Assembly (NCBI GenBank): GCA_031082185.1
Contig: JAVHLI010000001.1
Location: 313,980-377,979 of the forward strand
Direction of reading: 5' to 3'
From: a bacterium
Lineage (GTDB): Bacteria > Sysuimicrobiota > Sysuimicrobiia > Sysuimicrobiales > Humicultoraceae
Length of the DNA stretch: 64,000 nt
Shown: one piece after another, positions 1-14,521 of the stretch
How the letters are laid out: each line of letters begins with the position of its first letter
How positions within the stretch are numbered: position 1 is the stretch's first letter
Notes under the pieces: generated by a model
Database searches by the model: none
Told to the model about the DNA's origin: nothing
What the model saw: only the letters and a program-made list of their open reading frames with translations
Position numbers and translations under genes: made by a program

Positions 1-242
1 GGGCCTCGCACCTGCACGTTCCCCACGCTGGCGCTGCCCTTCCCGGGCACGACCAGGCCGGCCAGGACCTTGAGCAGAGTGGTCTTGCCGCAGCCGCTGG
101 GCCCAGCCACCACCACGAACTCGCCCCGCCGCACCGTGAGACTCACGTCCTCGACGGCGCGGACCGCCTGGCCCTCGTGTTGGTAGTCCAGCGTGACGTT
201 ATCGAGGCGGACGAAGGTCTCTTCAGCGGTGAGGTTGGTCAA
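1..242 (-). CDS. ABC transporter ATP-binding protein, NitT/TauT (SsuB/TauB-like) family; N-terminal part only, gene runs off window start
   Basis: Minus-strand translation from TTG(242): [63 protein letters not shown]..., Walker [10 protein letters not shown]; start overlaps stop of upstream LLM gene (TTGA). Absent from ORF track because truncated. Confidence 0.6.
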
Positions 243-1252
243 AACCGTCCCTCTGCGAAGGCATCAATCATGGCGCGCACGTCGTCTCCAAGGGGATACA
301 GGATGGGGCAGGTGCACCCGGCGGCCACGTACTCACGGACCTTGGCGCGGCACTCCGCTGGGGTGCCCGAGGCGGTTATCATCTGGACCACTTCGTCGGG
401 CACCAGGCGCATTGCCCTGTGGATCTCCTCCGGCCCGGCCGGCCAGGTAAGCTCTTTGCCGATCTCGTCCAGCAGCGCCGGGTTCACCCCGCTGGCCTTC
501 ATGATGTGGGGCTGCTGGCCGAGGTACTGCGTCACCAGTTCGCGGGCGCGGTCCAGTGCCAAAGAGCGATCCTCGTCCAGGGAGCAGACCACGAGCTGGG
601 GCCGGTCGAGGTCCTCGACCCTCCGCCCGGCCCTGGCGGCGCCGGCGGCAAGCGCTTCCATCGCCGTCTTGTTGTAGCCGGGGCTGACCAGGTAGTTCAG
701 CAGCACGCCGTCGGCGATCTCACCGGTCAGCTCCATCATCTTCATGCCCGTCGCGCCGATGTAGATGGGCACCTTCTTGGGCGAACGGTCGCCGTGCACG
801 ATGTCGAGCTCGATGTCGGTGACGTGCACGAACTCGCCGTGGTAGGTCACCCTCTCCATGGCCAGCAGCCGCCGGGTGACCTCGACGACCTCGCGCATCG
901 CCTGCAGCGGCTTGCGCCGGTTCACCCCGACCTTTGTGGCCAGCGGCTCCCACCAAGCGCCGACCCCGAGCATTACCCGGCCCGGCGCCAGGTCGTCGAG
1001 GGTGGAGAACGTTGCCGCCAGCAGTCCCACGTTGCGCGTCCAGAGGCTGACGACCCCCGAACCCACCTTGATCCGGTCGGTGACCGCCGCGAACGCGGCC
1101 AGCGGGATCGTGGCCTCGCGGACCAGGCGGCTCTCCGCCTGCCACACCGCCTCGAACCCGCGCTCCTCGGCGTACCGCACGTACTCCATTCCTTGGCGAA
1201 TGGGATGCTTGTCCTGCAGGTACAGGGCTACGCGTCCGCCGCCTGGTGTCAT
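239..1252 (-). CDS. Luciferase-like monooxygenase (LLM) family, F420-dependent-type oxidoreductase
   Basis: ORF 239..1603 trimmed to internal ATG ([17 protein letters not shown]...); LLM fold motifs ([20 protein letters not shown]); ATGA overlap with upstream amidohydrolase stop. Confidence 0.75.
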
Positions 1253-2589
1253 GGCCTCGGTCCTCCTGCGGGTTCGAACTCGTGGGGTCCTATCTCCTCG
1301 AGGCGGCGCCACAGCCGCTCTGTCTGCGTTCTTGCCTGCGCGGCAAGCCGGTCCTGGTCTACCTTTGTCAGCCGCCGATCCGCCACCACGATCTCGCCGC
1401 CCACAACAACGTCGCGCACGTGTCGCGCCGAGAGGCCGAAGATCCAGTGGCCGGCCAGGTTGCCCTCGTGCAGCGGCGTTGGGGTAGGGTAGTCCAGCAC
1501 CGTGATGTCTGCCGGCGCGCCGGGCTCGATTCGGCCCAGCGCGGGTTCGCCCAGGATCCTCCCGGCCATGCGCGCGCCTGCGGCCATGCGCTGGAGCGGC
1601 CATGCGAAGTCGAGGAAGAGATCGTCCTCCCGGGCCCGCCAGTACGCGGCCGCCGATTCGGCGAACATGTCGGCGCCGATGCCGTCGGTGCCGAGCACCA
1701 CGCGCTCTCCGAGGCGGCCCACCCGCGCGCGGCCGACCGAGTTGTTCATATTGGACCGCGCGTTGTGCGCCACGGTCGCTCCGGAGCGGAGAATCGCGGC
1801 GATCTCGCCATCGTCCACGTGCACGCAGTGGACCAGGATTGCCCGATCATCCAGCGCGCCGGCATCGGCCAGCCGGTGCACCACGCGCCGGCCAAAGCGG
1901 GCCAGGGCATCGCGCTGGTCTGCTCCGTCTTCGGCCACGTGGACGTGAACGCCTGCGCTTGCCTGGCGCGCAAGCTCGACACAGGCGGCCAGCGTGTCCG
2001 CCGAGAGAGTGAACGACGCGTGCGCGCCCACCAGGCCCATTGCCAGGGGCCGCTGCGCGGCCAGGAACCGCCGGTTCTCCTCGACCCCGGCGCGCGCACG
2101 TTCGGGCCCATCGCGATCGGTGACCTCGTAGCAGAGAACCGAACGCAGGCCGAGTTCGCCGAGCGCGTCCGCAATGACATCGAGCGAGCCCGCGATGGCG
2201 TAGGGCGAGGCGTGGTGATCAACGACGGTGGTTGTGCCGGAAAGCAGCGCGCTCATCGCGCCGGCCAGTGCCGACGCGCGGACCGTCTCCTCGTCCAGGA
2301 CCCGGTCCAGCCGCCACCAGACGCGCCGGAGGATCTGCGTGAAGTTGGCCGGCGGCTCCAGGCCGTAGGGCATGCCTCGCGCCAGCGCAGAGTATAGATG
2401 CGTGTGCGCGCAGACGTTACCAGGGATGATCAGGCAGCCCGAGCAGTCGCGGCGCGGAAGACCCTCCGGAGCCCGGCCGACCGCGGTCACCCGGCCTCCC
2501 TCGATCAGCACGTCGGCCTGGAGAAGCGCTGGCGCGTCCAGCGACGCAAGCACGGTACCGCCGGTCAGGGCGAGACCCATCTCAGGCAT
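1249..2589 (-). CDS. Amidohydrolase-superfamily protein, SsnA/chlorohydrolase-like (cyclic amidine/aminohydrolase)
   Basis: HTHLYS metal-binding motif, amidohydrolase_1 architecture, ~446 aa; start chosen at ATG with GAGG 6 nt upstream (GTG at 2601 also possible); lies beside XdhD-like gene as ssnA does in E. coli. Confidence 0.75.
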
Positions 2590-2597
2590 TCTCAACC

Positions 2598-5249
2598 TCA
2601 CACACCCTCAACGCGGCCGGGCCGCGCCCTTTTGGGCACGAACCCTCGGGCCGCGGGAGAATCCTTCATGGGCAGCCGGGTCCGGCGAATGCCGTCATAG
2701 GACCACAGCGCGCCGGCGATCGCCGCGGCCGTGGGGATGTTGCCGATCTCTCCAACTCCCTTGGCCCCGTATGGTCCCTCGGGCTGGAACTCCTCGACGA
2801 AGATGCACTCAACCGCAGGCATCCCCACCGCAGGCACGATGCCCAGCGACTTGAGGGTGTCGGTCACCGGCACCCCTCCCTCCAGCACCAGTTCCTCGGA
2901 GAGCGCGTACCCCATCCCCATGTGGACGGACCCCTCTATCTGGCCTTCCAGCAGCGTCGGATTCATAACCCGGCCGACGTCGTGGGCCGCGATCACCCTG
3001 GCCACCCGCCCGTCATCGTCGAGGATTGCTACCTGGGTGGCCCAGCCGTACGCGAAGTGCGTCACCTGATCCTCCACGCCCGGGGTCGGCTTGGAGGTCC
3101 AGTCAATCACGGTCTCGCCGTAGAACTCCTGCCCGGCCAGCGACTCCAGCCGAGCATCCCCGCTCCGTCCACCCCCGAGCCGACCGCCCCCGAGATGGCC
3201 ACCCCCGAGCGCGGCCCGCAGGCGCTTCGCCGCCTCGATGACCGCCAGCCCGCCGAGGACCGTGGCGCGGGAAGCCGTGGTCTCACCGGTGCCCAACTCG
3301 CGCACCGTGTCAACCGCGACCGCCACCCGGTCGGGTGTCAGGCCGAGTTCCTCGCAGGCCACCTGTTGAAGGATGGTATGAACTCCCTGTCCCATCTCGG
3401 TCCAGGAGTGAAACACCGTGACCGTGCCGCCCTCCTCGACGCGCAGCACCGCCCTGCCGTACTCGGTCAGGCCGTTGCCGATCCCGGTGTTCTTTACGGC
3501 GCAGGCGATGCCGGCGTAGCGCGCCGAGCGAAAGGCGTCGCGCACCGCGAGCAGCGTCTTCTTGAGGCCGACGCCCGGCCCCAGCTTCTGGCCGGTGGCG
3601 AAGACGTCGCCGACGTCCAATGCGTTACGCCATCGGATCTCCCAGCGGTCTATGCCCACCCGCAGGGCCAGTGTGTCCATCATCGCTTCCATCGCGAAGC
3701 TGACTTGGTTGACCCCGAACCCGCGCATGGCGCCGGCGGGCGGGTTGTTGGTGAAGACCGCCCTTGACTCGACGTCCACGTTCGGCACGCGGTATGGGCC
3801 GCAGGCGTGGCCCGCCGCCCGCTCCAGGACTTTGTCCCCGACGCTGGCGTAGGCGCCGGTGTCCCCCACGATCCGCGCGCGCACCGCGAGCAGGCGTCCC
3901 GCCTCGTCGCAGCCGACCGTGTACTCCATGGTCATGGGATGGCGCTTGGGATGGAACCGGATGCTCTCCCGCCGTGACAGCGCCAGCATCACCGGCCGAC
4001 CGGTCATCACGGCCAGCAGTGAGGCGTGCGCCTGGACGCTCAGATCCTCCTTGCCGCCGAAGCCGCCGCCGCTGGAAACCAGCGTGACCCGGACCCTTTC
4101 CTCAGGGAGCGCGAGCACCGATGCCACCTGCCGGCGGTCCTCCCAGATGCCCTGCCCCTGCGAGAAGAAGTGCACGCCGCCGTCGCCGGAAGGCACTGCC
4201 AGGCAGGCCTCCGGCTCGAGAAACGCGTGCTCGATGGATTGGGTGCGGAAAGTCTCCCCGGCTACGAACGCAGCGCCTGCGAGCGCCGCGCCCGCGTCGC
4301 CGCGCTGCACCTTCGTCACGGAGAGCAGGTTGCCCATTTCGTGGACCACCGGGGCGCCCTCGGCCAGCGCCTCGAACGGATCGGTGACCGGGGGCAGTAC
4401 CTCGTACTCCACCTCGATGAGGGCCGCGGCCGCGCGGGCGGCGGCCCTGGACTCGGCCGCGACGACCGCCAGGATGTCCCCGACGTAGTTTGTGACCTCG
4501 CCCTCGGCCACGAACTGCCGCCAGTCGCTGAAGATCAGGCCCACCCGGCGCTCTCCAGGCACGTCGCGCCAGGTGGCCACCGCGACGACGCCGGGATGGG
4601 CGCATGCCCTCGATACGTCAATGCGCAATACCTTTGCCCGAGGGTGATCGGACCACCGCACGGCGCCGTGGAGCATGCCGGGTACGCGCATGTCGGCCAC
4701 GAACGGCTTCTGGCCCAGCACCAGATCTCGACCCTGGTACCGCGCGGTGCGCGATCCCACCTTGCCGCTGCGATCGGGCGCAGGAACCGGTTCCCCGCGC
4801 CGCGCCCCGGCGGCGTAGCTGATGGCGTCAATGATCTTGATGTAGCCGGTGCACCGGCAGAGGTTGCCGGCCAGGGCCCTGGCGATCTCCTCGCGAGAGG
4901 GATCGGGATTACGGTCCAGCAGGGATTCGGCCTTCATCACGATGCCCGGTGTACAGAATCCGCACTGGGACGCGCCGGAGGCGACGAAGCAGTCCGCCCA
5001 CTGCGCGCGGTGCTCCTCGGGCAGTCCTTCAAGCGTGGTGACCTGCCGTCCGGCGGCCCTCTCCGCCGGCTGGGCGCACGATACCACCGCCCTGCCATCC
5101 AGGAGCACCGTGCACGCGCCGCAGGAGCCCTCCGGTGCGCACCCGTCCTTCATCGAGGTCAGGCCGCACTGCTCGCGGAGCACCTCCAGCAGGCTCGCGC
5201 CCTTGCGGGCTTCCAGCGAGACCTGCCGTCCGTTGAGCGTGAACTCCAC
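2598..5249 (-). CDS. Xanthine-dehydrogenase-family molybdoenzyme, fused N-terminal [2Fe-2S] ferredoxin domain + molybdopterin-binding catalytic domain (XdhD/selenium-dependent Mo-hydroxylase-like)
   Basis: N-terminus MEFTLNGRQV...CGACTV...QCGFCTPG (two 2Fe-2S Cys clusters) followed by aldehyde-oxidase/XDH a/b hammerhead and MoCo-binding domains; 883 aa; GTG start. Confidence 0.85.
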   Translation of the reverse strand: MEFTLNGRQVSLEARKGASLLEVLREQCGLTSMKDGCAPEGSCGACTVLLDGRAVVSCAQPAERAAGRQVTTLEGLPEEHRAQWADCFVASGASQCGFCTPGIVMKAESLLDRNPDPSREEIARALAGNLCRCTGYIKIIDAISYAAGARRGEPVPAPDRSGKVGSRTARYQGRDLVLGQKPFVADMRVPGMLHGAVRWSDHPRAKVLRIDVSRACAHPGVVAVATWRDVPGERRVGLIFSDWRQFVAEGEVTNYVGDILAVVAAESRAAARAAAALIEVEYEVLPPVTDPFEALAEGAPVVHEMGNLLSVTKVQRGDAGAALAGAAFVAGETFRTQSIEHAFLEPEACLAVPSGDGGVHFFSQGQGIWEDRRQVASVLALPEERVRVTLVSSGGGFGGKEDLSVQAHASLLAVMTGRPVMLALSRRESIRFHPKRHPMTMEYTVGCDEAGRLLAVRARIVGDTGAYASVGDKVLERAAGHACGPYRVPNVDVESRAVFTNNPPAGAMRGFGVNQVSFAMEAMMDTLALRVGIDRWEIRWRNALDVGDVFATGQKLGPGVGLKKTLLAVRDAFRSARYAGIACAVKNTGIGNGLTEYGRAVLRVEEGGTVTVFHSWTEMGQGVHTILQQVACEELGLTPDRVAVAVDTVRELGTGETTASRATVLGGLAVIEAAKRLRAALGGGHLGGGRLGGGRSGDARLESLAGQEFYGETVIDWTSKPTPGVEDQVTHFAYGWATQVAILDDDGRVARVIAAHDVGRVMNPTLLEGQIEGSVHMGMGYALSEELVLEGGVPVTDTLKSLGIVPAVGMPAVECIFVEEFQPEGPYGAKGVGEIGNIPTAAAIAGALWSYDGIRRTRLPMKDSPAARGFVPKRARPGRVEGV

Positions 5250-5254
5250 TGCGA

Positions 5255-6205
5255 TCAGCCCAGGGTGATGCGCGTGCCGGTTTCCCCGCCCAGCGCCCGC
5301 TCCAGGTTCTCAGGGTTGGTGATCAACGCCTCGCCCCCGCCCCGCTCCAGGTAGCCGATGACCGCCTCCATCTTGGGAGCCATGCTGCCCTTCGCAAAGT
5401 GCACGCCCTCGGCCAGGTACTCCTTGGCCTGGGACAGGGTCATCCGCCGGATCGTCTGCTGGTTGGGCTTGCCGAAGTTGAGGGCTACCTGTTCCACCGA
5501 GGTGGTGATTACGAATAGGTCGGCGCCTATGACCGTGGCCAGCAGTGACGATGCCAGGTCCTTGTCAATGACCGCGGCCACCCCACGCAGGTTGCCTTCC
5601 GCGTCGGCTACGACCGGGATTCCGCCTCCGCCCACGGTGATGACCACGAACCCCTCGCCGATCAGGCGCTTGACCGCCTCCTCTTCGACGATGCGGATCG
5701 GGACCGGCGAGGCCACGACGCGCCGCCAGCCCCTTCCCGCGTCCTCAACCACGCTCCAGCCCTCCTCGGCTTGTCGGCGCCGGGCCTTCTCCGCGTCCAT
5801 GAACGACCCGATCGGCTTGGTCGGTTTCTGGAAGGCAGGATCGTCCGCGCTCACCTCGACCTGCGTTACCACGGTCACGGCGTCCTTCTTGATGCCGAGC
5901 CGGCGGAACTCATTGTACAGGTTCTGCTGGAGCGCATAGCCGATGGCGCCCTGGCTGTCGGCGCCGCAAACGTCGAGCGGCACCTCGTGCAGCTCGTGGG
6001 CGGCCAGCTCCGACCGGCGCAGGATGAAGCCGACCTGAGGTCCGTTGCCGTGCCCGATTGTTACGTCCCAGCCGTCCCGGATCATGCCGGCGATGCGCCG
6101 GCAGGTCTCCCTGGCGGCCTCGTACTGGTCCTGCACCGTCTGGCGTTTTGAATCCTTGATCAGCGAGTTCCCGCCGATCGCCACTACCGCGGTACGCCCG
6201 GCCAT
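5255..6205 (-). CDS. arcC: Carbamate kinase
   Basis: AVVAIGGNSL...GHGNGPQVG carbamate-kinase signature, 316 aa; GGAGG 7 nt upstream of ATG. Confidence 0.9.
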   Translation of the reverse strand: MAGRTAVVAIGGNSLIKDSKRQTVQDQYEAARETCRRIAGMIRDGWDVTIGHGNGPQVGFILRRSELAAHELHEVPLDVCGADSQGAIGYALQQNLYNEFRRLGIKKDAVTVVTQVEVSADDPAFQKPTKPIGSFMDAEKARRRQAEEGWSVVEDAGRGWRRVVASPVPIRIVEEEAVKRLIGEGFVVITVGGGGIPVVADAEGNLRGVAAVIDKDLASSLLATVIGADLFVITTSVEQVALNFGKPNQQTIRRMTLSQAKEYLAEGVHFAKGSMAPKMEAVIGYLERGGGEALITNPENLERALGGETGTRITLG

Positions 6206-6272
6206 GCGCTTCCCTCCCGCAGCCCTCTTCCCGCCGCTCTCTTCCTGGGCGCGTCGCCGTATCCGGTGCGCG

Positions 6273-7250
6273 TCAGCTCATCGTCAGGGCCATCACGGCC
6301 TTCTGTCCGTGCAGCCGGTTTTCGGCCTCGTCGTAGACCACCGATTGAGGCCCGTCAATCACCGCGTCGGTGACCTCGATGTTGCGGTCGGCGGGCAGGG
6401 GGTGCATGTAGATCGCGTCATCCCCGGCCATTGCCATGCGCCGCTCATCGGTGATCCAGTCCTTGTACTTGGCGGAGTGCTTCGCGCCTTCCTCATCGCT
6501 CTTAACGGTCAGCAGGGCGCCCCAGCTCTTCGCGTAGACGACGTCGGTGCCGCGAATGCCGGCCTCGAAGTCGTCCATGATCTCAAACCCAACCTTGGCG
6601 CGGCGTGCGTTCTCCTGCGCCTGTCCCACGATCTCGGGCATCAGCTGGAATCCCGGCGGGTGGACCAGCCGGACGTTCATGCCGAAGCGGGGCATCAGGA
6701 GGATCAGACTCTGCGGCACGCTGATCGGCTTCTGGTAGCTGGCGGCGTAGGCCCAGCTCACGGTGATGGTCTTCCCGCGCGGATCGCCCTTCTTCTCGAT
6801 AATGGTCAGCAGGTCCGCGAGGGCCTGGAACGGGTGGTAGATGTCGCACTGCATGTTCAGCACGGGCACACGGCTGGCCGCGGCGACCTCGCGGATGTAC
6901 TTGTTGCCCCCCATCCAGTCCACGTGCCTGATGGCTAGGCCGTCGTTGTAGCGTCCCAGGATCTCGCCGATCTCCTTGGCGGTGTCGCCGTGGGCGATCT
7001 GGGTGGTGCGGCTCTCGATGAACTGCGCGTGGCCGCCCAACTGCGCCATGCCGGCCTCGAACGAGGCGCGGGTGCGCGTGCTGGAGAAGAAGAACAGCAT
7101 CGCCAGCACCTTGTCGCGCAGGATGGCGTGCGGCTGGCTGAGGGCTCGGCTGCGCTTGAGATCCAAGGCCACGTCCAGCGCGGTATCGATCTCCTCCTTG
7201 GTCCACTCCTGCAGGGTGATGAGGTCACGTCCGCGGAGATATGTCTGCAT
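6273..7250 (-). CDS. Ornithine-carbamoyltransferase-like transcarbamylase (OTCase/YgeW-like, probably catabolic)
   Basis: STRTR carbamoyl-phosphate motif, HPLP motif, 325 aa; beside carbamate kinase. Confidence 0.75.
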   Translation of the reverse strand: MQTYLRGRDLITLQEWTKEEIDTALDVALDLKRSRALSQPHAILRDKVLAMLFFFSSTRTRASFEAGMAQLGGHAQFIESRTTQIAHGDTAKEIGEILGRYNDGLAIRHVDWMGGNKYIREVAAASRVPVLNMQCDIYHPFQALADLLTIIEKKGDPRGKTITVSWAYAASYQKPISVPQSLILLMPRFGMNVRLVHPPGFQLMPEIVGQAQENARRAKVGFEIMDDFEAGIRGTDVVYAKSWGALLTVKSDEEGAKHSAKYKDWITDERRMAMAGDDAIYMHPLPADRNIEVTDAVIDGPQSVVYDEAENRLHGQKAVMALTMS

Positions 7251-7261
7251 CGGGACTCCTC

Positions 7262-8215
7262 CTATTCCACTGCGCCCAGCACGAGGGCCAGCAGCGCCAT
7301 GCGAACGACCACGCCGTTGAACGCCTCGGTCCAGTACCGAGCGTGGCGGGTGATGTCAACGTCGGGGGTAAGCTCGTCCATGCGCGGCAGGGAGTGCAGC
7401 ACGATCGCGCTGCTCTTGCCCCGCTCCCGCAGCAACTGGCGGGTGATCTTGTAGGCCGCCGGGGTGAGCCCCACGTCGCCGGAGCGCTCGTCACGGGACT
7501 TCGTGTAGTCGGGCTGGACCACGGGCTCCATGTAGATCACGTCTGCCTCGCCGATGACTTCCTCGGCCGTGGCTACCTCACGGTACCGGACGCTGAGCGC
7601 GTCGAGCTCCGCCTTGAACTCGGGAAGAAGGGACATCTCGGGCGGCGAGACCACGAACGCCTCCATGTCGAACTGCGACATCGCGTAGAGGATTGAGTGC
7701 ATCGTGCGCATCCGCATGTCGCCCACGCACAGCACCTTGAGGCCGTCCAGCGTGCCCAGCTCGCGCTGGATCGTGTATAGGTCTATCAGTACCTGGGTGG
7801 GGTGCTCCCCCCAGCCGTCGCCGCAGTTGATGATCGGCACCGAGGCCCAGCGGGCCGCCTCGTGCGGCGCGCCCTGCTGGAAATGGCGCATGGCGATGAC
7901 GTCGCCGTAGTACTCGAGCATGTGCACGGTGTCCTTGATAGACTCCTGGTAGAAGTCGCCGGCACGGGTCATCTTGGCGTCCGAGAACCCCAGCACGCTG
8001 CCTCCCAGCCGGATCATGGCCGCCTCCGTGGCCAGGCGCGTGCGGGTGCTGGGCTGGTAGAACGCGGTGACCAGGGTCTTGTGCTTCAGCAGGTCGGTGT
8101 TGCGCCGGTCGCGCGCGTAGGGCTTCAGGTCGTCCGCCACCTGGAAGACACGGAAAAACTCGTTGCGCTCGAAATCCTTGAGCGACAGGATGTCCCTACC
8201 GAGAAAGCTTCTCAT
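7262..8215 (-). CDS. Aspartate-carbamoyltransferase-like transcarbamylase (ATCase/OTCase superfamily)
   Basis: STRTR and HPTQ (ATCase-type) motifs, HSLPR motif, 317 aa; no pyrI nearby. Confidence 0.7.
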   Translation of the reverse strand: MRSFLGRDILSLKDFERNEFFRVFQVADDLKPYARDRRNTDLLKHKTLVTAFYQPSTRTRLATEAAMIRLGGSVLGFSDAKMTRAGDFYQESIKDTVHMLEYYGDVIAMRHFQQGAPHEAARWASVPIINCGDGWGEHPTQVLIDLYTIQRELGTLDGLKVLCVGDMRMRTMHSILYAMSQFDMEAFVVSPPEMSLLPEFKAELDALSVRYREVATAEEVIGEADVIYMEPVVQPDYTKSRDERSGDVGLTPAAYKITRQLLRERGKSSAIVLHSLPRMDELTPDVDITRHARYWTEAFNGVVVRMALLALVLGAVE

Positions 8216-8261
8216 TAACCGATCCCTCCCTTTATGCCGGCCGTTCGGCCCTCGTATTGTC

Positions 8262-9626
8262 TCATCGTTTCACGCCGGTGAACAACACCGCCACGCGCTC
8301 ACCCGACCCGATGCCGCCCTCGCGATGAAGGCGCAGCAGCCCGGCCAGCCCGGCGGAGCCGGTGTGATCCACACCGATCCCCGTGGCTGCCTGCGCGAGC
8401 GCGTTGGCTTCCTTCAGTGTCTCCTCAGATACCAGGACCGGAGTGCCCCCGGTGGTTGCCATCCCCCGGAGAACCGCCAGCCAGTCGTAAGTCTCGTCAT
8501 CGAGGATGCCGTGTGCGATGCTCTTCGGCTCCTCCTCCCACGGCCACATGAACTGCGAACGGTGGGTGGCGGCGTAGCGCAATGCCTCCTCGATCCTCTC
8601 GCGGCCCTCCGGCCCGCCCTCAGGAGACGGCCCGATCCGCTCCATGAGCCGGCCGTAGGCCCGCTCCAAAGGATGGCCGCCCAGGGTCTGGACCGCGTGG
8701 ATCCGCGGCATCCGCTCCAGCGCGCCCAGGCGCACCGCGTCCTGGAGCGCCTGGATCACGGAGCTGGCCAGCGCACCGCCGCCTGTCTGGATGAACAGGC
8801 GGTCCAGCGTACTGCCGGCGGACGCCAGATCCGAGGCGATCTCGTATCCCAGGGTCTTGCCGCCGTCTATCGTCAGCCCATTGTCAGGCCCCTGGCAGGT
8901 GAACGGCAGGGCGCCCTCGCGCACCGCCTGCTGCAGCCGGTGGTAGGTAGGATCGCCGGGGGAGCCTTCCTCCCTGGGGCAGATAGTCAGGTGCGCGCCC
9001 AGCGCCTCCAATCGTGATACCACCACCGGGTCGGCGCTCGTGGGCACGAACACCTGGAGCCGCCGCCCGCCGGCCCGGGCCACCACTGCGGCGGCCAGTG
9101 CCGCGTTGCCGCAACTCGCGATGGCCAAATCGGGCGCGCCCGCGCCGGCCTGTTCGGTCCCGGCCCGAGCGGTCAGGCCGGCCCGCTCGACTACCTCCAG
9201 GTGGATCAGCAGCCCCATCAGGTGGCGCGCCTTGTGCGACCCGGAAACATTGCCGGTTTCGTTCTTCACCCAGACGCCGCCCCCGGCGAATCCAAGACGG
9301 TCGCCTAGCGGACCGCTGCGGAAGAACGGGGTGGCCTCAAACCCGCCCCCGTCCACCTGCGCCACCGCGAGGTCGAGCCGCTCGACCAGGCCGACATAGT
9401 CGGCGTCGGTGAGGCCGTGCGCCAGGGCCAGGTGGTAAGAGTGTGAGAGCTCGCGATATCGGACGAACGGGTTGGCCGGACCGTAGGCGGGAAACCGAAG
9501 GCCCGCCGGGTCCAGCACCGCGGTCATCACGTGGTCGGTATCGTCGCCCCGGCCTGCGTTGGGACACCTGAAGGGGTAGGGATCGCCGGGCGGTGCCGCG
9601 GCGCCACACCCGGTACAGGCAATCAT
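8262..9626 (-). CDS. PLP-dependent enzyme, tryptophan-synthase-beta-like (fold type II) with Cys-rich N-terminal extension
   Basis: [14 protein letters not shown] Schiff-base lysine region; N-terminus MIACTGCG...RCPNAG (CxxC...CP); 454 aa; ATGA overlap with upstream PLP gene. Confidence 0.6.
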
Positions 9627-11116
9627 GCGGCCGCTCCCGTCCTTCCGTTGAACTCCTCGATCAGATGGTCCCAGGCTGGGATGATCGCCCGCATCTCCTG
9701 CCAGAACCGCTGATCCCGCCTGGCCTCGAACTCCTCGATCGAGATCCCCTGCTGTTCCACCCAGGTGAAGTAGCCCAGGTTGAAGATGCGGTCCCGGTCC
9801 ACGCGGGTCAACTCCAGCAGGTGGTCGTTGGTGACGCTGCCCAGGTGTCCGGCGAACGTCGCGCCGGCGGCGACCGCATCGAATCCGCCTGGGAAGTACT
9901 TCCGGAGGGATTTCTCCCGCTCGGTGGCGTACATCGCCGCGCCGTCGGTGGCGACGGTGACGACGACATCTTGTGGCCCCATCCCGAAGTGCTTCGCGGT
10001 CTTGATCGCCCCGAGCACGTTGCAGATGCTGGAGAGCCCCAGCGCCGGCAGCAGTTCAATCACCGCGGGCGGTACACCCTGCCGGCTCACGAGATACTCG
10101 CGGCCGGCAGGAGTGTTGAACAACACGTCGAGCCGATCGGTGCTCTGGTCCGAGACCGCCGCCACCAAGTCGGTGTTCGTCACGTTGTGGATCAGAGGGA
10201 TGTGCTTGTCACCTATGCCCTGGATGTTGTGCTCGCCGAAACCGTTGTACAGCATGGTTGGGCACTCAAGGGCCTCCATGGCCACAATCTTGGCGCCGTA
10301 CTGTTCCTTGAGGTAGTCACCGGCGCCCAGGGTGCCGGCCGAGCCGGAGGCGGAGACAAAGGCGCGCATCCGCAGGCCGGGCTCGGAGGCAGCCAGCGAC
10401 TCGAACAGATTCCCCAGCGCCTTTCCCGTGACCAGGTAATGCACCAGATGGTTTCCGAACTCGCAGAACTGGTTGAAGATGATGTTGGTCGGATCGCGCT
10501 CCAACTCCGCGCACTTGTCGTAGATCTCTTTGACGTTGCTCTCTGTGCCCGGCGTCCGGATGATGTCCGCGGGGTCGGCTATCCACCGCTCCAACCATGC
10601 GAACCGCTCCCGGCTCATCCCCTGCGGCAGCACGGCGATTCCCCGGCAGCCCATGATGCGCGAGATGGCCACGCCGCCGCGGGCATAGTTGCCGGTGGAC
10701 GGCCAGACAGCCCGATGGGCCGTCGGGTCGAACTGCCCGGTGATTATCCGCGGGGCTATGCACCCGTAGGCGGCCAGCACCTTGTGGGCGCGGATCATCG
10801 GGAAGCGGTCTCCGAGTGCGACCACGATGCGCGCTTCCACCCCGGTGAGCGCCTTGGGCAGCACCACGTGCTCGGGCGACGCCACCCGGTCGGTGCGGGT
10901 TGCACCGTTGAACCAGTGCACCCTAAAGAGGTTCAGCGGGTGTGGGGCATCCGGGTCCACGCCGGAGAGGGCCTCCCGGATCCGCGGCGGAATCCGGGCC
11001 GGGTCCGTCAGTTCTGCGAAGGTGGGCAGCACGATCCCGGCATCGCGGAAACGTCCCACCGCCCGCTCATAAACAGTCTTATCTACGAGCTCACGTTCGA
11101 GCCCAAGTCGCCTCAT
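9623..11116 (-). CDS. PLP-dependent enzyme, TrpB-like/fold type II family (function unknown)
   Basis: [10 protein letters not shown] lysine motif and glycine-rich PLP-phosphate loop ([12 protein letters not shown]); 497 aa; GAGGGG upstream of ATG. Confidence 0.55.
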
Positions 11117-11164
11117 CTGTCTACCCCTCTTGCGCTAGGTTGGCCTATCCCTGCAGCGCCTATT

Positions 11165-12211
11165 CTACCTCACGGGAAGCATACGCTCCGCCTTGGGCGG
11201 GAGGAACTTGTCGGTGAAGACCTGCTGCCACCTGGGCTTGACCGGGAGCGCGAACGCTTCCGTCAGCAGATCAACGGACCGGCTCATGCGCTCGCCCTTG
11301 ATTGCGCCGAAGCCGTGGGATTGCACATCTTTGGTCAGGATGTTGTGCCGGAGCGCGAGCTGCAGGCGCTCAAGCTCTACGTCCTCGCGCAGCAGCGGGT
11401 CGCGCCGCTTGACGATGGCGACGGCCTCTGAGGGGTTGTTGATCGTGTCCTTCAACGCGCGCACAAACGCCCTGAGGAACCCGCGGACCGCCTCGGGCTC
11501 CTTCTCGAGCAGGGTCGCCGGCGCCATGATGGCGTTGCCGTAGAGGGGAAGGCCCTGGTCGTTGTACATGAACGCCACGATCTCGGCCGGATCTACCCGC
11601 GCGGCCTTCAGGTTGAGGAACGAGGTGAAGTAGAAGCCGGAGATGGCGTTGACGTCGCCCCTGACCAGCATCGGCTCACGTAGCGGCACGTCCATGGTGA
11701 TCCACTCGACCGAGGCCGGGTGCATGCCCACAGCCCGGGCGAAGAGCGGCCAGAGGCGGCGCGGCGCATCGCCGGCCGGCGCGCCCAGCTTCTTCCCGTA
11801 GAGCTCGATCGGCCGCGTGATGCCCTCGCGCCTCAGCGTGATGATCGAGAAGGGAGGCTCGTTCAACAGGACCGCTATGGCCACGAGCTCCCGGCCTGGG
11901 TTCCTGGCGTTGAACTCGATCATTGAGTTGATGTCGGCGTAGCCCAGGTTGTAGGCGCCGCCGGCGATCTTGGTCACCGCGTCGGCCGAGCCGAAGCCGC
12001 GGTCAACCGTGATGTTCAGGCCTTCCGCCGCATAGTAGCCCTTCTCCAGGGCGACCAGGAAGGGCGCCTGCGGTCCCTGTACGATGAAGTCCAGGGTGAA
12101 CTTCCACGTCGTCTGCTTACCTGGTCTGGCGGGCGGCTGGGCAAGGCCAAATCCGGCGGCCAGCACGACAACTGCCAGCACCGCCGCAAACACTGCCAAG
12201 AGGCTTCTCAC
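11165..12211 (-). CDS. ABC transporter substrate-binding protein, NMT1/THI5-like (NitT/TauT, SsuA-type); paralog 1
   Basis: Signal peptide MRSLLAVFAAVLAVVVLAAG; NMT1/THI5-like core; ~75% identical to neighbouring paralog. Confidence 0.8.
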   Translation of the reverse strand: MRSLLAVFAAVLAVVVLAAGFGLAQPPARPGKQTTWKFTLDFIVQGPQAPFLVALEKGYYAAEGLNITVDRGFGSADAVTKIAGGAYNLGYADINSMIEFNARNPGRELVAIAVLLNEPPFSIITLRREGITRPIELYGKKLGAPAGDAPRRLWPLFARAVGMHPASVEWITMDVPLREPMLVRGDVNAISGFYFTSFLNLKAARVDPAEIVAFMYNDQGLPLYGNAIMAPATLLEKEPEAVRGFLRAFVRALKDTINNPSEAVAIVKRRDPLLREDVELERLQLALRHNILTKDVQSHGFGAIKGERMSRSVDLLTEAFALPVKPRWQQVFTDKFLPPKAERMLPVR

Positions 12212-12341
12212 TTCTGGTCCCTCCTTGAGATAGGACAGAGATTCTCCGGATGCTAGAGTATTATGGTTGGATTCCGGTGTAACCTAAAAGGTTCGCGATT
12301 GGCGAAGAAACCCCCTTCTCCGCACCCTACTCCCGGCTAGG

Positions 12342-13403
12342 CTACCTTGCGGGCAGCATGCGCTCAGACTTGGGAGGCAGGAACTTGTCCGAGAAGACGC
12401 GCTGCCAGGCGGGCTTGGTCGGGAGACTGAACGCCTCGGCCAGCAGGTCAATGGACCGGCTCAGGCGCTCGCCCTTGACGCCGCCGAAGCCGCCCGATCT
12501 GACGTCCTTGGTCAGGACGACGTGCTGGAGGGCCAGCACCAGGCGTTCCCGTTCCACGTCCTCGCTAATCATCGGGTCGCGGCGCTTGAGGGAGCTGATG
12601 GCCTCGGAGGGGTTTGCGACCGCATCCTTCCAGGCGCGCGTTATCGCCCTGACGAAACCTCGCAGAGCTTCGGGCTCGTCCTTCAGGAGGGAAGGCGGCG
12701 CGATGATGGCGTTCCCGTAGAGCGGCAGGCCGTACTCGTTGTATGGGAAGATCACGATGTCCGCGGGATCCACCCTGGCAGTCTTGAGCGTGATGAAGGC
12801 GTTGAACGAGAAGGCGGCAACCGCGCTGACCTCACCCCGCAACAGCATCGGCTCCCGCAGCGGCGGGGACATCGTCACCCACTCCACGGAGGCCGGGTGC
12901 ATGCCGACCGCTTTGGCGAACAGCGGCCAGAGCACGCGCGGAGCAGAGCCGGCCGGCGCACCCAGCTTCTTCCCGTAGAGGTCGATCGGCCGGGTGATGC
13001 CCTCCTTCCGCAGCGTAACGATGCTGGAAGGCAACGCGTCGAAGGGCACGGCAACGGCGATCAGGTCCCTGCCGGGATTCCTGGCGTTGAACTCGATCAT
13101 GGTGTTGATGTCGGCGAATCCCAGGTTGTAGGCGCCGGCCGCGACCTTGGACACGGCGTCGGCAGAGCCGAACCCGCGGTCAATGGTGAGGGAGATACCT
13201 TCCGCGGCGTAGTAGCCCTTCTCTAGCGCCAGCAGGAAGGGCGCGTACGACCCGTCAAAGACCCAGTCAATCGTGAACTTCCACTGCACCGTTCGGCCGG
13301 GCTTGGCCGGCGTCTGGGCGAGTCCAGATCCGGTGGCGGCTGCGGTGATGATCAGCGCGACGACGATCATCGCGGCGACGGTCAGCGAGAGCAGGCGTTT
13401 CAT
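12342..13403 (-). CDS. ABC transporter substrate-binding protein, NMT1/THI5-like (NitT/TauT); paralog 2
   Basis: ORF 12342..13502 trimmed to ATG (MKRLLSLTVAAMIVV..., signal peptide) with AGGAGG 7 nt upstream. Confidence 0.8.
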   Translation of the reverse strand: MKRLLSLTVAAMIVVALIITAAATGSGLAQTPAKPGRTVQWKFTIDWVFDGSYAPFLLALEKGYYAAEGISLTIDRGFGSADAVSKVAAGAYNLGFADINTMIEFNARNPGRDLIAVAVPFDALPSSIVTLRKEGITRPIDLYGKKLGAPAGSAPRVLWPLFAKAVGMHPASVEWVTMSPPLREPMLLRGEVSAVAAFSFNAFITLKTARVDPADIVIFPYNEYGLPLYGNAIIAPPSLLKDEPEALRGFVRAITRAWKDAVANPSEAISSLKRRDPMISEDVERERLVLALQHVVLTKDVRSGGFGGVKGERLSRSIDLLAEAFSLPTKPAWQRVFSDKFLPPKSERMLPAR

Positions 13404-13592
13404 GGGTGGTCCTCCTCTTGGGATTCTTGTTGCGAATGATTCGAGGCCGCCCTGTCGCTCCCTTTCCCGGGGCGGTAGGCAGAGGAAGGCGCTCGGCTGC
13501 ACCCTTTTGGCACTCTTGGGCGTCGCCTGGGGTACAATCGTGACGTTACCGTTCTTCTGAGGATCGCGCTCTTGGGCAGCGGGGAGGACAGC

Positions 13593-14039
13593 ATGAGCAG
13601 GCAGGTATCTGCTGGCAGAAAGACCGCCTACTACCTGGGCGTCGTTGTCATGATCATCGGCGGCCTCATGTTCGCATCCGTGTTTGTCACGCTTGCGATG
13701 CTTGCCGGGAGAGACTCAGATCCAGAAACGGTGATCGGGTCCTTCCTGATTCGCGCCTTCGGGGGACTGGCGCTCGTGGCCGTTGGTGGCGCAATCAGGG
13801 CAGTTGGAGCCCGTGGCCTGGCCGGTTCTGGCGTGGTTCTGGATCCGGAACGGGCACGGCAGGAACTCGAACCCTACGCTCGAATGGCAGGCGGCATGGT
13901 CAAAGATGCATTGGATGAGGCCCAGATCAAGGCCGGAACAGGCGGGCCGCAGAGAATCGTTATGGTCAGATGTCCCTCCTGCCGAAAGCTGAACGAAGAG
14001 GACTCTAAGTTCTGCCAAGAATGCGGGAAGGGCCTCTGA
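13593..14039 (+). CDS. Hypothetical membrane protein with C-terminal zinc ribbon
   Basis: Two predicted TM helices then CPSC...CQEC; ATG at 13593 preceded by GGAGGA. Confidence 0.5.
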   Translation: MSRQVSAGRKTAYYLGVVVMIIGGLMFASVFVTLAMLAGRDSDPETVIGSFLIRAFGGLALVAVGGAIRAVGARGLAGSGVVLDPERARQELEPYARMAGGMVKDALDEAQIKAGTGGPQRIVMVRCPSCRKLNEEDSKFCQECGKGL

Positions 14040-14521
14040 TCAACTCCTTTGTGCAGGGGGTTGCTTCGTCTCGGCTGGGAGCCTGGTTCCTTTCTCGCAC
14101 CCTGCACCATCTCGACCGCCTCGTTCTCAGGGTGACCGGGGGCCGCACGACCATGACCGGCCTCTTGACAGGTCTGCCGGTCGTCGTCTTGACAGCCACC
14201 GGCGCCAGGAGCGGGCTGCCGCGCACGCTTCCTCTGCTGTGCGTTCGCGACGAGCTTACCCCGAATGCTTTCGCCCTCGTCGCCTCGAACTGGGGAGGGC
14301 GACACAACCCGGCCTGGTACTCTAACCTGAAGGCGAACCCCCGCGCGGTGGTTTCCGTGGGCGGTCAGGTTGGGGAGTACGTCGCACGCGAAGCAAGCGG
14401 AGGGGAGTACGAGAGGCTCTGGCGGCTGGCAGAGGACACCTATGCGGGCTTCCGGCTGTACAAGGCGCGCGCTTGTGGGAGGCGCATCCCGATAGTGATC
14501 ATGACGGTGAGCACCGCGTGA
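14021..14521 (+). CDS. Deazaflavin(F420)-dependent nitroreductase-family oxidoreductase (Ddn-like, PNPOx fold)
   Basis: TGARSGLPRT...NWGG..NPAWYSNLKANP signature of F420H2-dependent reductases; start uncertain (ATG 14021 overlaps previous gene by 19 nt). Confidence 0.7.
   Translation: MREGPLINSFVQGVASSRLGAWFLSRTLHHLDRLVLRVTGGRTTMTGLLTGLPVVVLTATGARSGLPRTLPLLCVRDELTPNAFALVASNWGGRHNPAWYSNLKANPRAVVSVGGQVGEYVAREASGGEYERLWRLAEDTYAGFRLYKARACGRRIPIVIMTVSTA

Follow-up and report, generated by a model that had tools for sequence, protein, structure and literature searches.

Which compound would a bacterium take up and break down with an operon that joins an ATP-binding cassette (ABC) importer to a molybdenum hydroxylase, an amidohydrolase, two transcarbamylases, a carbamate kinase and two pyridoxal phosphate (PLP) enzymes? 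The question is raised by the left end of a 64,000-nucleotide stretch of contig JAVHLI010000001.1 (positions 313,980 to 377,979; assembly GCA_031082185.1, from a bacterium of the Humicultoraceae, Sysuimicrobiota), here called the window. Eleven genes, all on the minus strand, occupy window positions 1-13502, where the G+C content is 63-70% in 2-kb steps. In the order of transcription they encode two NMT1/THI5-family binding proteins, two fold-type II PLP enzymes (PLP497, then PLP454), a transcarbamylase derived from aspartate carbamoyltransferase (TC_A), a short YgeW-like transcarbamylase (TC_O), carbamate kinase, a fused 2Fe-2S and molybdopterin hydroxylase (the Mo enzyme), an SsnA-like amidohydrolase, a luciferase-like oxidoreductase (LLM) and an ABC transporter ATPase. 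An initial annotation, made from the sequence alone, had reported eleven collinear, mostly coupled genes of these broad families. Pfam and NCBIfam profile searches, judged against the curated cutoffs, returned the same families at the same coordinates, with finer assignments for the PLP enzymes and transcarbamylases that are given below. Start and stop codons overlap by 4 nt at four junctions (ATPase/LLM, LLM/SsnA, SsnA/Mo enzyme and PLP454/PLP497), the other intergenic gaps measure 5, 11, 46, 48, 67 and 130 nt, and GGAGG-type ribosome-binding sites precede most of the genes.

Family assignments, the published biochemistry of E. coli and C. sporogenes, the conservation of the gene set and the purine genes found beside it in relatives together led us to read the cluster as one operon that probably serves the uptake and reductive catabolism of uric acid, or of a very close purine, by an F420-dependent variant of the 2,8-dioxopurine pathway. 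The general logic put forward in the initial annotation (import of an N-heterocycle, a molybdenum hydroxylase, ring opening by an amidohydrolase, passage of ureido groups to phosphate and ATP formation by carbamate kinase) is supported. So is its comparison with the ygeW-yqeA and ssnA-ygfM-xdhD region of E. coli, the window proteins being 37%, 51% and 35% identical to SsnA, YqeA and YgeW, respectively.

That region, then called poorly defined, is now assigned to the reductive uric acid (2,8-dioxopurine or yanthine) pathway by two studies of 2025 (PMC12507026; bioRxiv 10.1101/2025.04.24.650524; commentary, PMC12990295). In these two studies, E. coli XdhD or C. sporogenes XdhAC converts urate to 2,8-dioxopurine, YgfK reduces 2,8-dioxopurine, SsnA opens the pyrimidine ring to give ureidomethyl-hydantoin, and HyuA yields 2,3-diureidopropionate. 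YgeW phosphorolyses one ureido group, YqeA uses the carbamoyl phosphate to make ATP, YgeY hydrolyses the other ureido group, and YgeX converts 2,3-diaminopropionate to pyruvate (PMC12507026; bioRxiv 10.1101/2025.04.24.650524). The window has in common with the urate clusters of E. coli, C. sporogenes and C. difficile a fused FeS/Mo hydroxylase, an SsnA-like amidohydrolase, a YgeW-like transcarbamylase, carbamate kinase and a co-located transporter. It would also follow the logic of the E. coli pathway, in which one reduction and two ring openings are followed by the stripping of two ureido groups from a C3 backbone; HyuA homologs are present in clusters related to that of the window. It differs in the proposed reductase (an F420-type LLM instead of YgfK or UacX), in the Mo enzyme (TIGR03311-type without the FAD subunit YgfM, as against xdhD-ygfM), in the proposed second ureido step (an ATCase-derived transcarbamylase instead of the hydrolase YgeY), in the proposed replacement of YgeX by two unrelated fold-type II PLP enzymes and in the importer (an ABC system with NMT1-family binding proteins instead of UacT). 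Comparison with the proteins of the E. coli region (locus L088; tblastn for HyuA) found no homolog of YgfK, HyuA, YgeY, YgeX, YqeB or YqeC in the window, so that the absence of ygeX, ygeY and hyuA noted at the outset holds for all 64 kb; ygeV of the known clusters is likewise not in the window.

In the pathway that we propose, a NitT/TauT-type ABC importer with the two NMT1-family binding proteins would take up the purine (urate), the fused FeS/Mo enzyme would dehydroxylate urate at C6 to 2,8-dioxopurine (the DOPDH step), and the Mer-like LLM would reduce 2,8-dioxopurine with F420H2, in place of the NAD(P)H-dependent YgfK. The SsnA-like protein would hydrolyse the dihydro compound to ureidomethyl-hydantoin or 5-ureido-dihydrouracil. 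A hydantoinase would open the second ring to 2,3-diureidopropionate; a HyuA-like gene is present in related clusters and none is encoded in the window. TC_O, as the counterpart of YgeW, would phosphorolyse one ureido group of 2,3-diureidopropionate. TC_A would phosphorolyse the remaining group, its most plausible target being the alpha-N-carbamoyl group of 3-amino-2-ureidopropanoate. Both ureido groups would thus become carbamoyl phosphate, each of which carbamate kinase would turn into ATP, so that up to two ATP per urate could be gained, compared with one in E. coli. The coupled PLP pair would stand in for YgeX and form pyruvate and ammonia from 2,3-diaminopropionate.

Part of this is already known, namely the class of pathway, since 2025, and the exchange of YgfK for an LLM, which was noted bioinformatically by Li et al. 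Using SsnA as the marker enzyme, these authors reported Chloroflexota SsnA neighbourhoods in which YgfK/UacX is missing and a PF00296 'putative F420-dependent' enzyme is present; in their neighbourhood colouring any PF00185 counted as YgeW and any PF00291 as YgeX (PMC12507026). The window resembles this Chloroflexota variant in that SsnA stands beside a luciferase-family F420-type enzyme. Li et al. do not describe a second transcarbamylase, the loss of its aspartate-binding residues, a PLP pair or an ABC importer, nor a spread into Actinomycetota and Armatimonadota, and no later work on the F420 variant or its lower pathway was found in the full-text literature searched. The earlier suggestion of an undescribed pathway is therefore to be narrowed: the class is known and the substrate is likely urate, but that literature appears to contain no description of the lower half, with its additional, ATCase-derived transcarbamylase and its coupled PLP pair, nor of the ABC importer or the wide distribution among environmental bacteria. 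We put forward only tentatively, as a possibility that we would not yet call probable, the fuller proposal that the cluster holds a complete lower branch of the reductive urate pathway, new in three respects (a double harvest of carbamoyl phosphate by a short YgeW-type enzyme and an ATCase-derived N-carbamoyl-diaminopropionate transcarbamylase, a two-protein PLP system and an F420H2-dependent, Mer-like ring reduction), and that at least several dozen, perhaps hundreds, of Actinomycetota, Chloroflexota and Armatimonadota, mostly from soil and freshwater, carry this pathway.

Recurrence of the gene set in other genomes

A scan of species-representative genomes for the LLM gave at least 591 confirmed relatives. 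Eighty loci were kept, with LLMs 71-98% identical to that of the window, in metagenome-assembled genomes (MAGs) labelled Thermoleophilia, Gaiellaceae, Acidimicrobiia, Streptosporangiaceae, Nocardioides, Anaerolineae, Ardenticatenia, Blastocatellia and others. Co-occurrence was counted by tblastn with the window proteins in the 46 LLM-centred loci of at least 18 kb; open reading frame calling on these high-GC loci gave some spurious antisense frames, which were ignored, the counts resting on tblastn. SsnA was found in 38 of the 46 long loci, the Mo enzyme in 37, PLP497 in 35, a TC_O-type gene in 28, PLP454 in 27, TC_A in 26 and carbamate kinase in 17. All six non-kinase partners were present together, within 10 kb, in 21/46. 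Rather than co-occurring nowhere else, which the initial annotation had named as an outcome that would speak against it, the members of the cluster co-occur widely, and finding the same set again in dozens of genomes puts the arrangement far beyond chance.

The blocks Mo enzyme-SsnA-LLM and PLP497-PLP454-TC_A, together with a TC_O-type gene, recur in Armatimonadota, Actinomycetota and unclassified MAGs, and the gene order is near-identical in the Armatimonadota-labelled MAGs. One recurring order, PLP497-PLP454-TC_A-Mo enzyme-SsnA-LLM, ends with the TC_O-type gene and carbamate kinase, and a permutation, Mo enzyme-SsnA-LLM-TC_A-TC_O-(carbamate kinase)-PLP497-PLP454, was also seen. Three further loci, centred on PLP497, all contain the Mo enzyme and an amidohydrolase, with an LLM in two and a 4Fe-4S protein in the third. 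In the latter (L089:4307-9820), a 602-aa 4Fe-4S protein and a shorter amidohydrolase of 344 aa stand beside the Mo enzyme in place of LLM and SsnA, and may represent another reductase and ring-opening variant.

The flanks of the actinobacterial loci carry a three-subunit xanthine dehydrogenase (XDH), adenine deaminase, 8-oxoguanine deaminase (624 bits, cutoff 532) and IMPDH. In 10 related loci a HyuA-like gene was found, with 40-44% identity to E. coli HyuA; in L009, the closest relative outside the Armatimonadota, the gene lies immediately upstream of PLP497. The gene family to which these belong (fam10) is not uniformly HyuA: ten members are HyuA-like, and the member in L016, an allantoinase, was not counted. 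YgeX and YgeY homologs were each found in one related locus only, so TC_A and the PLP pair would take their place. YqeB-like genes are present in nine related loci, beside Mo enzymes of the E. coli XdhD type. In the Chloroflexota loci examined, unlike in the window, the Mo enzyme is of the XdhD type, cof genes are present and the PLP497-like protein shows 43% identity.

Proposed purine reduction and ring opening

The Mo enzyme (2598..5249; 883 aa, no FAD domain) has the Pfam domains Fer2, Fer2_2, Ald_Xan_dh_C, MoCoBD_1 and MoCoBD_2. It could have turned out to be an unrelated aldehyde oxidoreductase, a possibility raised in the initial annotation; it instead falls in the purine-type family TIGR03311 (995.6 bits, cutoff 830.45). 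This family differs from the TIGR03313 type, to which E. coli XdhD belongs. The Mo-binding domain of the window enzyme begins at residue 307, and residue 307 is also the start given for this domain in C. sporogenes DOPDH by the Dodd group. A single fused enzyme of the same FeS/Mo architecture is present in the cluster of the urate degrader E. faecalis (PMC2276186). The window enzyme is thus far a candidate for the conversion of urate to 2,8-dioxopurine by dehydroxylation at C6.

Two side observations concern this gene. At window positions 3148-3216, a 15-nt unit in about four copies encodes a Gly-rich loop (GGGHLGGGRLGGGRSG) between two stretches that bind the molybdenum cofactor, and the 96%-identical copy of the enzyme in locus L001 has another sequence at exactly that loop (KDDQLGGAHLGDRQLG). 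In L091 (14834-16288), a BBE/FAD_binding_4 oxidase gene is inserted between the TC_O-type gene and that of the Mo enzyme; its product might serve in electron transfer with the Mo enzyme, which itself lacks FAD.

The SsnA-like protein (1249..2601; 450 aa, the true start possibly 7 codons downstream) is 37% identical to E. coli SsnA over the full length. SsnA models are its best matches (NF005540, 433 bits) by more than 250 bits, the next family scoring only 155 bits.

The LLM (239..1252; 337 aa; PF00296, 236 bits) has as its best NCBIfam matches almost exclusively F420-type LLM families, led by Mer, with FMN-type families much lower. Among solved structures, Mer enzymes are the nearest to it (8qq8, E 2.6e-39), with F420-dependent glucose-6-phosphate dehydrogenase (FGD) next. 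The LLM gene adjoins SsnA in 55 of the 80 loci, and in the window, where no YgfK homolog was found, it holds the place beside SsnA. In Chloroflexota loci, fno, cofE, a nitroreductase-domain gene, cofD and cofC directly precede the LLM ortholog (L087:6286-9930; also L066 and L082). Just upstream of the window cluster, on the plus strand, lies a gene of the F420H2-dependent quinone reductase family (14021-14521; 166 aa; PF04075, 103.7 bits), which is independent evidence, by homology, that the host uses coenzyme F420. The predicted use of F420 by the LLM is therefore well supported, by its NCBIfam and structural matches, the cof and fno neighbours in Chloroflexota and the PF04075 gene in the window. 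Like Mer, the LLM would pass a hydride between F420 and an N-bonded carbon of a bicyclic N-heterocycle; it differs from Mer in that its hosts are non-methanogenic bacteria and its gene stands in a purine-catabolic context. Beside the Chloroflexota LLM genes we also noted a conserved protein of 821-876 aa without any Pfam or NCBIfam match, encoded directly 3' of the LLM gene in L087 (11036-13501), whereas a small 4HBT thioesterase gene intervenes in L066 and L082.

Proposed ureido removal, the PLP pair and the importer

Carbamate kinase (5255..6205; 316 aa; 51% identical to YqeA, as noted above) exceeds both of its cutoffs (TIGR00746, 373.3 vs 358.25 bits; NF009007, 402.6 vs 266 bits). TC_O (6273..7250; 325 aa) had been described as ornithine carbamoyltransferase-like. 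Of the E. coli enzymes, YgeW (35% identity, 197 bits) is a closer match than ArgI (29%, 133 bits), and TC_O carries the YgeW motifs QCDIxHPxQ, WAYxxSYxKPxSVPQ and YAKSW. The ornithine-binding motifs DxxxSMG and HCLP are missing, with YAKSWG in place of DVWVSMG and HPLP in place of HCLP. TC_O is 70 residues shorter than YgeW and far under the cutoff of the YgeW equivalog (194 vs 453 bits). Every locus with TC_A holds exactly one TC_O-type gene, either of the window type (75-87% identical) or of a 47-56% group that is more YgeW-like still and has HCLP and HPTQ.

TC_A (7262..8215; 317 aa) is 39% identical to E. coli PyrB and passes the aspartate carbamoyltransferase model TIGR00670 (252.9 bits, cutoff 236.95). 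Aspartate carbamoyltransferase binds aspartate with R167, R229 and Q231 and with K84 of the neighbouring chain, R229 and K84 contacting the aspartate carboxylates. An alignment of 26 family members with E. coli PyrB showed that TC_A keeps the carbamoyl-phosphate site, the motifs STRTR, HPTQ and HxLPR, and the residues R105 and R167. In 26/26 members, however, R229 is replaced by P, K84 by Y and K83 by D (E. coli numbering). TC_A also has S80->R, P266->S and a 5-residue insertion in the 230s loop, and the Q231 column of the family holds T, E or S. The earlier description as ATCase-like therefore holds for the PyrB profile and fails for the aspartate side-chain binders: with R229 and K84 lost, TC_A is, as far as its residues predict, not an aspartate enzyme. 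Since the Arg for the alpha-carboxylate is kept and the cationic side-chain binders have become Pro, Tyr and Asp, the substrate would carry an -NH3+ or ureido side chain rather than -COO-. The most natural candidate is an amino acid that is carbamoylated on its alpha nitrogen and whose side chain is cationic or neutral, namely 3-amino-2-ureidopropanoate or diureidopropionate. This reading would fit, without proving it, the cleavage order of Liu et al., in which YgeW removes the 3-ureido group first.

Unlike PyrB, TC_A has no pyrI beside it and lies within a catabolic operon that contains carbamate kinase. The arginine and agmatine deiminase pathways, with a catabolic ornithine or putrescine carbamoyltransferase and carbamate kinase, use the same route to ATP, from ureido phosphorolysis through carbamoyl phosphate to carbamate kinase; the window cluster differs from them in its purine-derived substrates, in having two different transcarbamylases in one operon and in lacking a deiminase.

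PLP497 (9623..11116; 497 aa; PALP, 37 bits) has extra N- and C-terminal helices, and PLP454 (8262..9626; 454 aa; PALP, 122.7 bits) an N-terminal Cys motif. The initial annotation had called both TrpB-like paralogs and pointed to COG1350. This is true at the superfamily level only: no TrpB model was among the NCBIfam matches of either protein, and they resemble CysK/CBS and ThrC/serine racemase, respectively. The AlphaFold2 (AF2) model of PLP497 (pLDDT 87.7) has CBS, CysK and beta-cyanoalanine synthase as Foldseek neighbours, and that of PLP454 (pLDDT 89.6) gives ThrC, serine racemase and TdcB as top matches; in profile searches PLP454 matches ThrC weakly. Judged by these models, PLP497 is a very divergent enzyme of the CysK/CBS type and PLP454 one of the ThrC, serine racemase or threonine deaminase type, although both lie far under the CysK and ThrC cutoffs (66 vs 351 and 81 vs 303 bits). 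Both proteins keep the PLP-lysine motif, the Asn/Gly substrate loop and the Gly-rich phosphate loop as invariant columns, with SGSHK as the invariant lysine motif in PLP454 and AHK and STGNY invariant in PLP497. When 8000 candidates were scored, at least 120 PLP497 homologs were found among the matches listed, all at least 71% identical.

The roles of the PLP pair are the weakest part of the model. One possibility, suggested by the proposed R (D) configuration of the C3 intermediates (PMC12990295), is that a serine-racemase-like partner would act with an L-specific eliminase of the CysK type; another is that the two proteins would form a heteromeric lyase. Neither protein qualified as a divergent YgeX, there being no BLAST match and HHalign probabilities of 40.7% (PLP454) and 1.8% (PLP497) that reflect generic fold likeness. 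A 665-aa homolog (P0008), considered as a PLP497-PLP454 fusion and hence as a sign of a complex, proved to be an internal duplication.

The importer is only partly contained in the window. The two PF09084 binding proteins are tandem paralogs, 68% identical: binding protein 1 (11165..12211; 348 aa, signal peptide; 113.6 bits) has as its closest solved structure ThiY, a pyrimidine-binding protein (3ix1), and binding protein 2 (353 aa; 121.3 bits) extends over 12342..13403 from an ATG at 13403, the longest open reading frame reaching a GTG at 13502. At the other end of the cluster, the NitT/TauT-type ATPase (1..242; TTG start, Walker A motif GPSGCGKT) runs off the left end of the window after its N-terminal 80 codons. 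Exact-sequence look-ups with the carbamate kinase and LLM of the window returned no record, and the genes beyond this edge were inferred from the 4.7-kb contig of a 98%-identical relative (L008), which carries a complete ATPase of 268 aa, a permease of 258 aa and then an isochorismatase-family hydrolase; a full ATPase and a BPD_transp_1-type permease are present in L009 as well. Among the loci examined, the NMT1-type importer is confined to the lineage of the window and L009, so that the purine proposed as its ligand is a tentative assignment. The hydrolase 3' of the L008 permease (3917-4543; 208 aa) is a cysteine hydrolase that could hydrolyse a ureide. It was considered as the missing ring or ureido hydrolase and set aside, with a weak match to BiuH (biuret amidohydrolase) and RutB and no counterpart in any other locus.

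Beyond 13.5 kb, unrelated genes on the opposite strand (the F420H2-quinone-reductase-family gene, ddl, dapF and apgM) indicate that the cluster starts there. A promoter and terminator scan of the region gave no promoter-like site and two terminator-like sites, fewer than in shuffled sequence. A terminator-like hairpin at 12292-12306 (minus strand), in the 130-nt gap between the binding-protein genes, might allow the first binding protein to be expressed at a different level. In relatives from lake metagenomes (L005:1-7251; also L006 and L007), a defence-like island with an Eco57I-type enzyme, an SLFN/AlbA_2 ATPase, a Fic-like protein and an SNF2/PLD helicase precedes the binding-protein genes, at a site where the window has housekeeping genes.

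Alternatives and implications

Several observations weigh against the reading of the operon as a pathway for urate. The Mo enzyme is only 27% identical to E. coli XdhD and 29% to XdhA, its family bears the name 'selenium-dependent xanthine dehydrogenase', by which it could oxidise xanthine instead of reducing urate, and yqeB, yqeC and selD were not found in the 64-kb window. The hydantoinase step has no gene there, tblastn with E. coli HyuA having returned nothing specific. Profile scores fall short at three steps: the SsnA-like protein is just under its cutoffs (NF005540, 433 vs 444 bits; TIGR03314, 415 vs 455.5 bits), the LLM is under every NCBIfam cutoff (Mer equivalog, 177 vs 276 bits) and TC_O is under all OTC, AOTC, PTC and YgeW cutoffs (OTC, 257.6 vs 306 and 240 vs 281 bits). 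PLP454 and PLP497 have no specific similarity to diaminopropionate ammonia-lyase, and there are two of them, although one lyase would chemically be enough. The order of ureido cleavage by YgeW is disputed (PMC12990295). LLM orthologs of 73-78% identity are also found outside purine contexts. Some of those in Anaerolineae adjoin cof genes only, and in Acidobacteriota MAGs (L026:7791-10996 and L043:8168-11008) an LLM of 75-78% identity is divergent from a D-aminoacylase-like (Amidohydro_3) gene, with no purine genes within 10 kb. More than one pathway may therefore depend on members of this LLM family. Locus L002, finally, has PLP497-PLP454-TC_A-carbamate kinase without a Mo enzyme or SsnA within 10 kb.

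Some of these points would suit the same chemistry applied to another N-heterocycle (xanthine, 8-oxoguanine, a pterin or lumazine, or a substituted pyrimidine), with LLM, SsnA and the transcarbamylases acting on its ureides. Such a substrate would accord with the pyrimidine ligand of ThiY, the closest solved relative of the binding proteins, with the reduction of a pterin by Mer, with the similar distance of the Mo enzyme from XdhD and XdhA and with the LLM orthologs that accompany other amidohydrolases outside purine clusters. It is nevertheless rather unlikely in our judgement, since SsnA, a YgeW-like protein, carbamate kinase and a HyuA-like protein are the set shown experimentally to process urate-derived intermediates, and the XDH, adenine deaminase and 8-oxoguanine deaminase encoded in relatives all funnel into urate. 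The partial cluster in L002, which lies beside an amino-acid-type ABC transporter, raises a different thought, that two independent modules happen to adjoin in the window: one for purines (Mo enzyme-SsnA-LLM) and one for ureido or carbamoyl amino acids such as albizziin, citrulline-like ureides or an N-carbamoyl amino acid (PLP497-PLP454-TC_A-TC_O-carbamate kinase). The relative order of the two blocks does vary between lineages. Yet they co-occur in most long loci (all six partners in 21/46) and in all three of the extra PLP497-centred loci, and they are interleaved in the window, where 5 nt separate carbamate kinase from the Mo enzyme. Moreover, a purine module on its own would stop at the diureide without downstream enzymes, YgeX and YgeY being absent, and the transposase beside the L002 module suggests rearrangement. 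We hold two separate modules to be unlikely.

The genes might also be ordinary biosynthetic ones near a xanthine dehydrogenase, with TC_A as PyrB, TC_O as ArgF and the PLP enzymes as CysK and ThrC. The TIGR00670 score of TC_A (252.9 vs 236.95) and the source annotations of the PLP proteins as 'cysteine synthase' and 'threonine synthase' would agree with this. Against it, R229 and K84 are missing from every TC_A family member, TC_O has neither of the ornithine-binding motifs SMG and HCLP and is under every OTC cutoff, and the PLP proteins are far below those of CysK and ThrC. The initial annotation had regarded anabolic PyrB/ArgF assignments with pyrI or arg genes nearby as evidence against its reading; no pyrI, pyrC or arg genes were found nearby, the operon includes a carbamate kinase of the catabolic kind, and the genes are conserved together with SsnA and LLM as one unit. 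The anabolic PyrB/ArgF reading was rejected on these active-site residues and on gene context, and we consider a biosynthetic cluster highly improbable.

The reading of the cluster as an F420-dependent urate operon has consequences for annotation and for enzymology. Passing the TIGR00670 cutoff without R229 and K84, the whole TC_A family is likely to be named PyrB by automatic annotation, a systematic risk of mis-annotation. Three large, highly conserved but uncharacterised families are singled out, the ATCase look-alike TC_A and the two PLP enzymes, and for TC_A the predicted substrates are concrete compounds that can be purchased or synthesised. If an ATCase-type enzyme is indeed specific for alpha-N-carbamoyl groups, this would bear on the order of ureido cleavage, and the cluster offers an independent handle on that order and on the stereochemistry of the C3 intermediates.

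The reductive urate pathway has been described as restricted to selected anaerobes, mainly of the gut, whereas the hosts found here are high-GC environmental Armatimonadota, Actinomycetota and Chloroflexota. The operon suggests a urate pathway with its reductant swapped for F420, possibly conserving more energy and widespread in environmental high-GC bacteria, and it offers a candidate physiological role for F420 in non-methanogenic bacteria. If this is true, reductive urate catabolism would not be confined to the gut or to obligate anaerobes, and its substrate-level ATP yield would be doubled.

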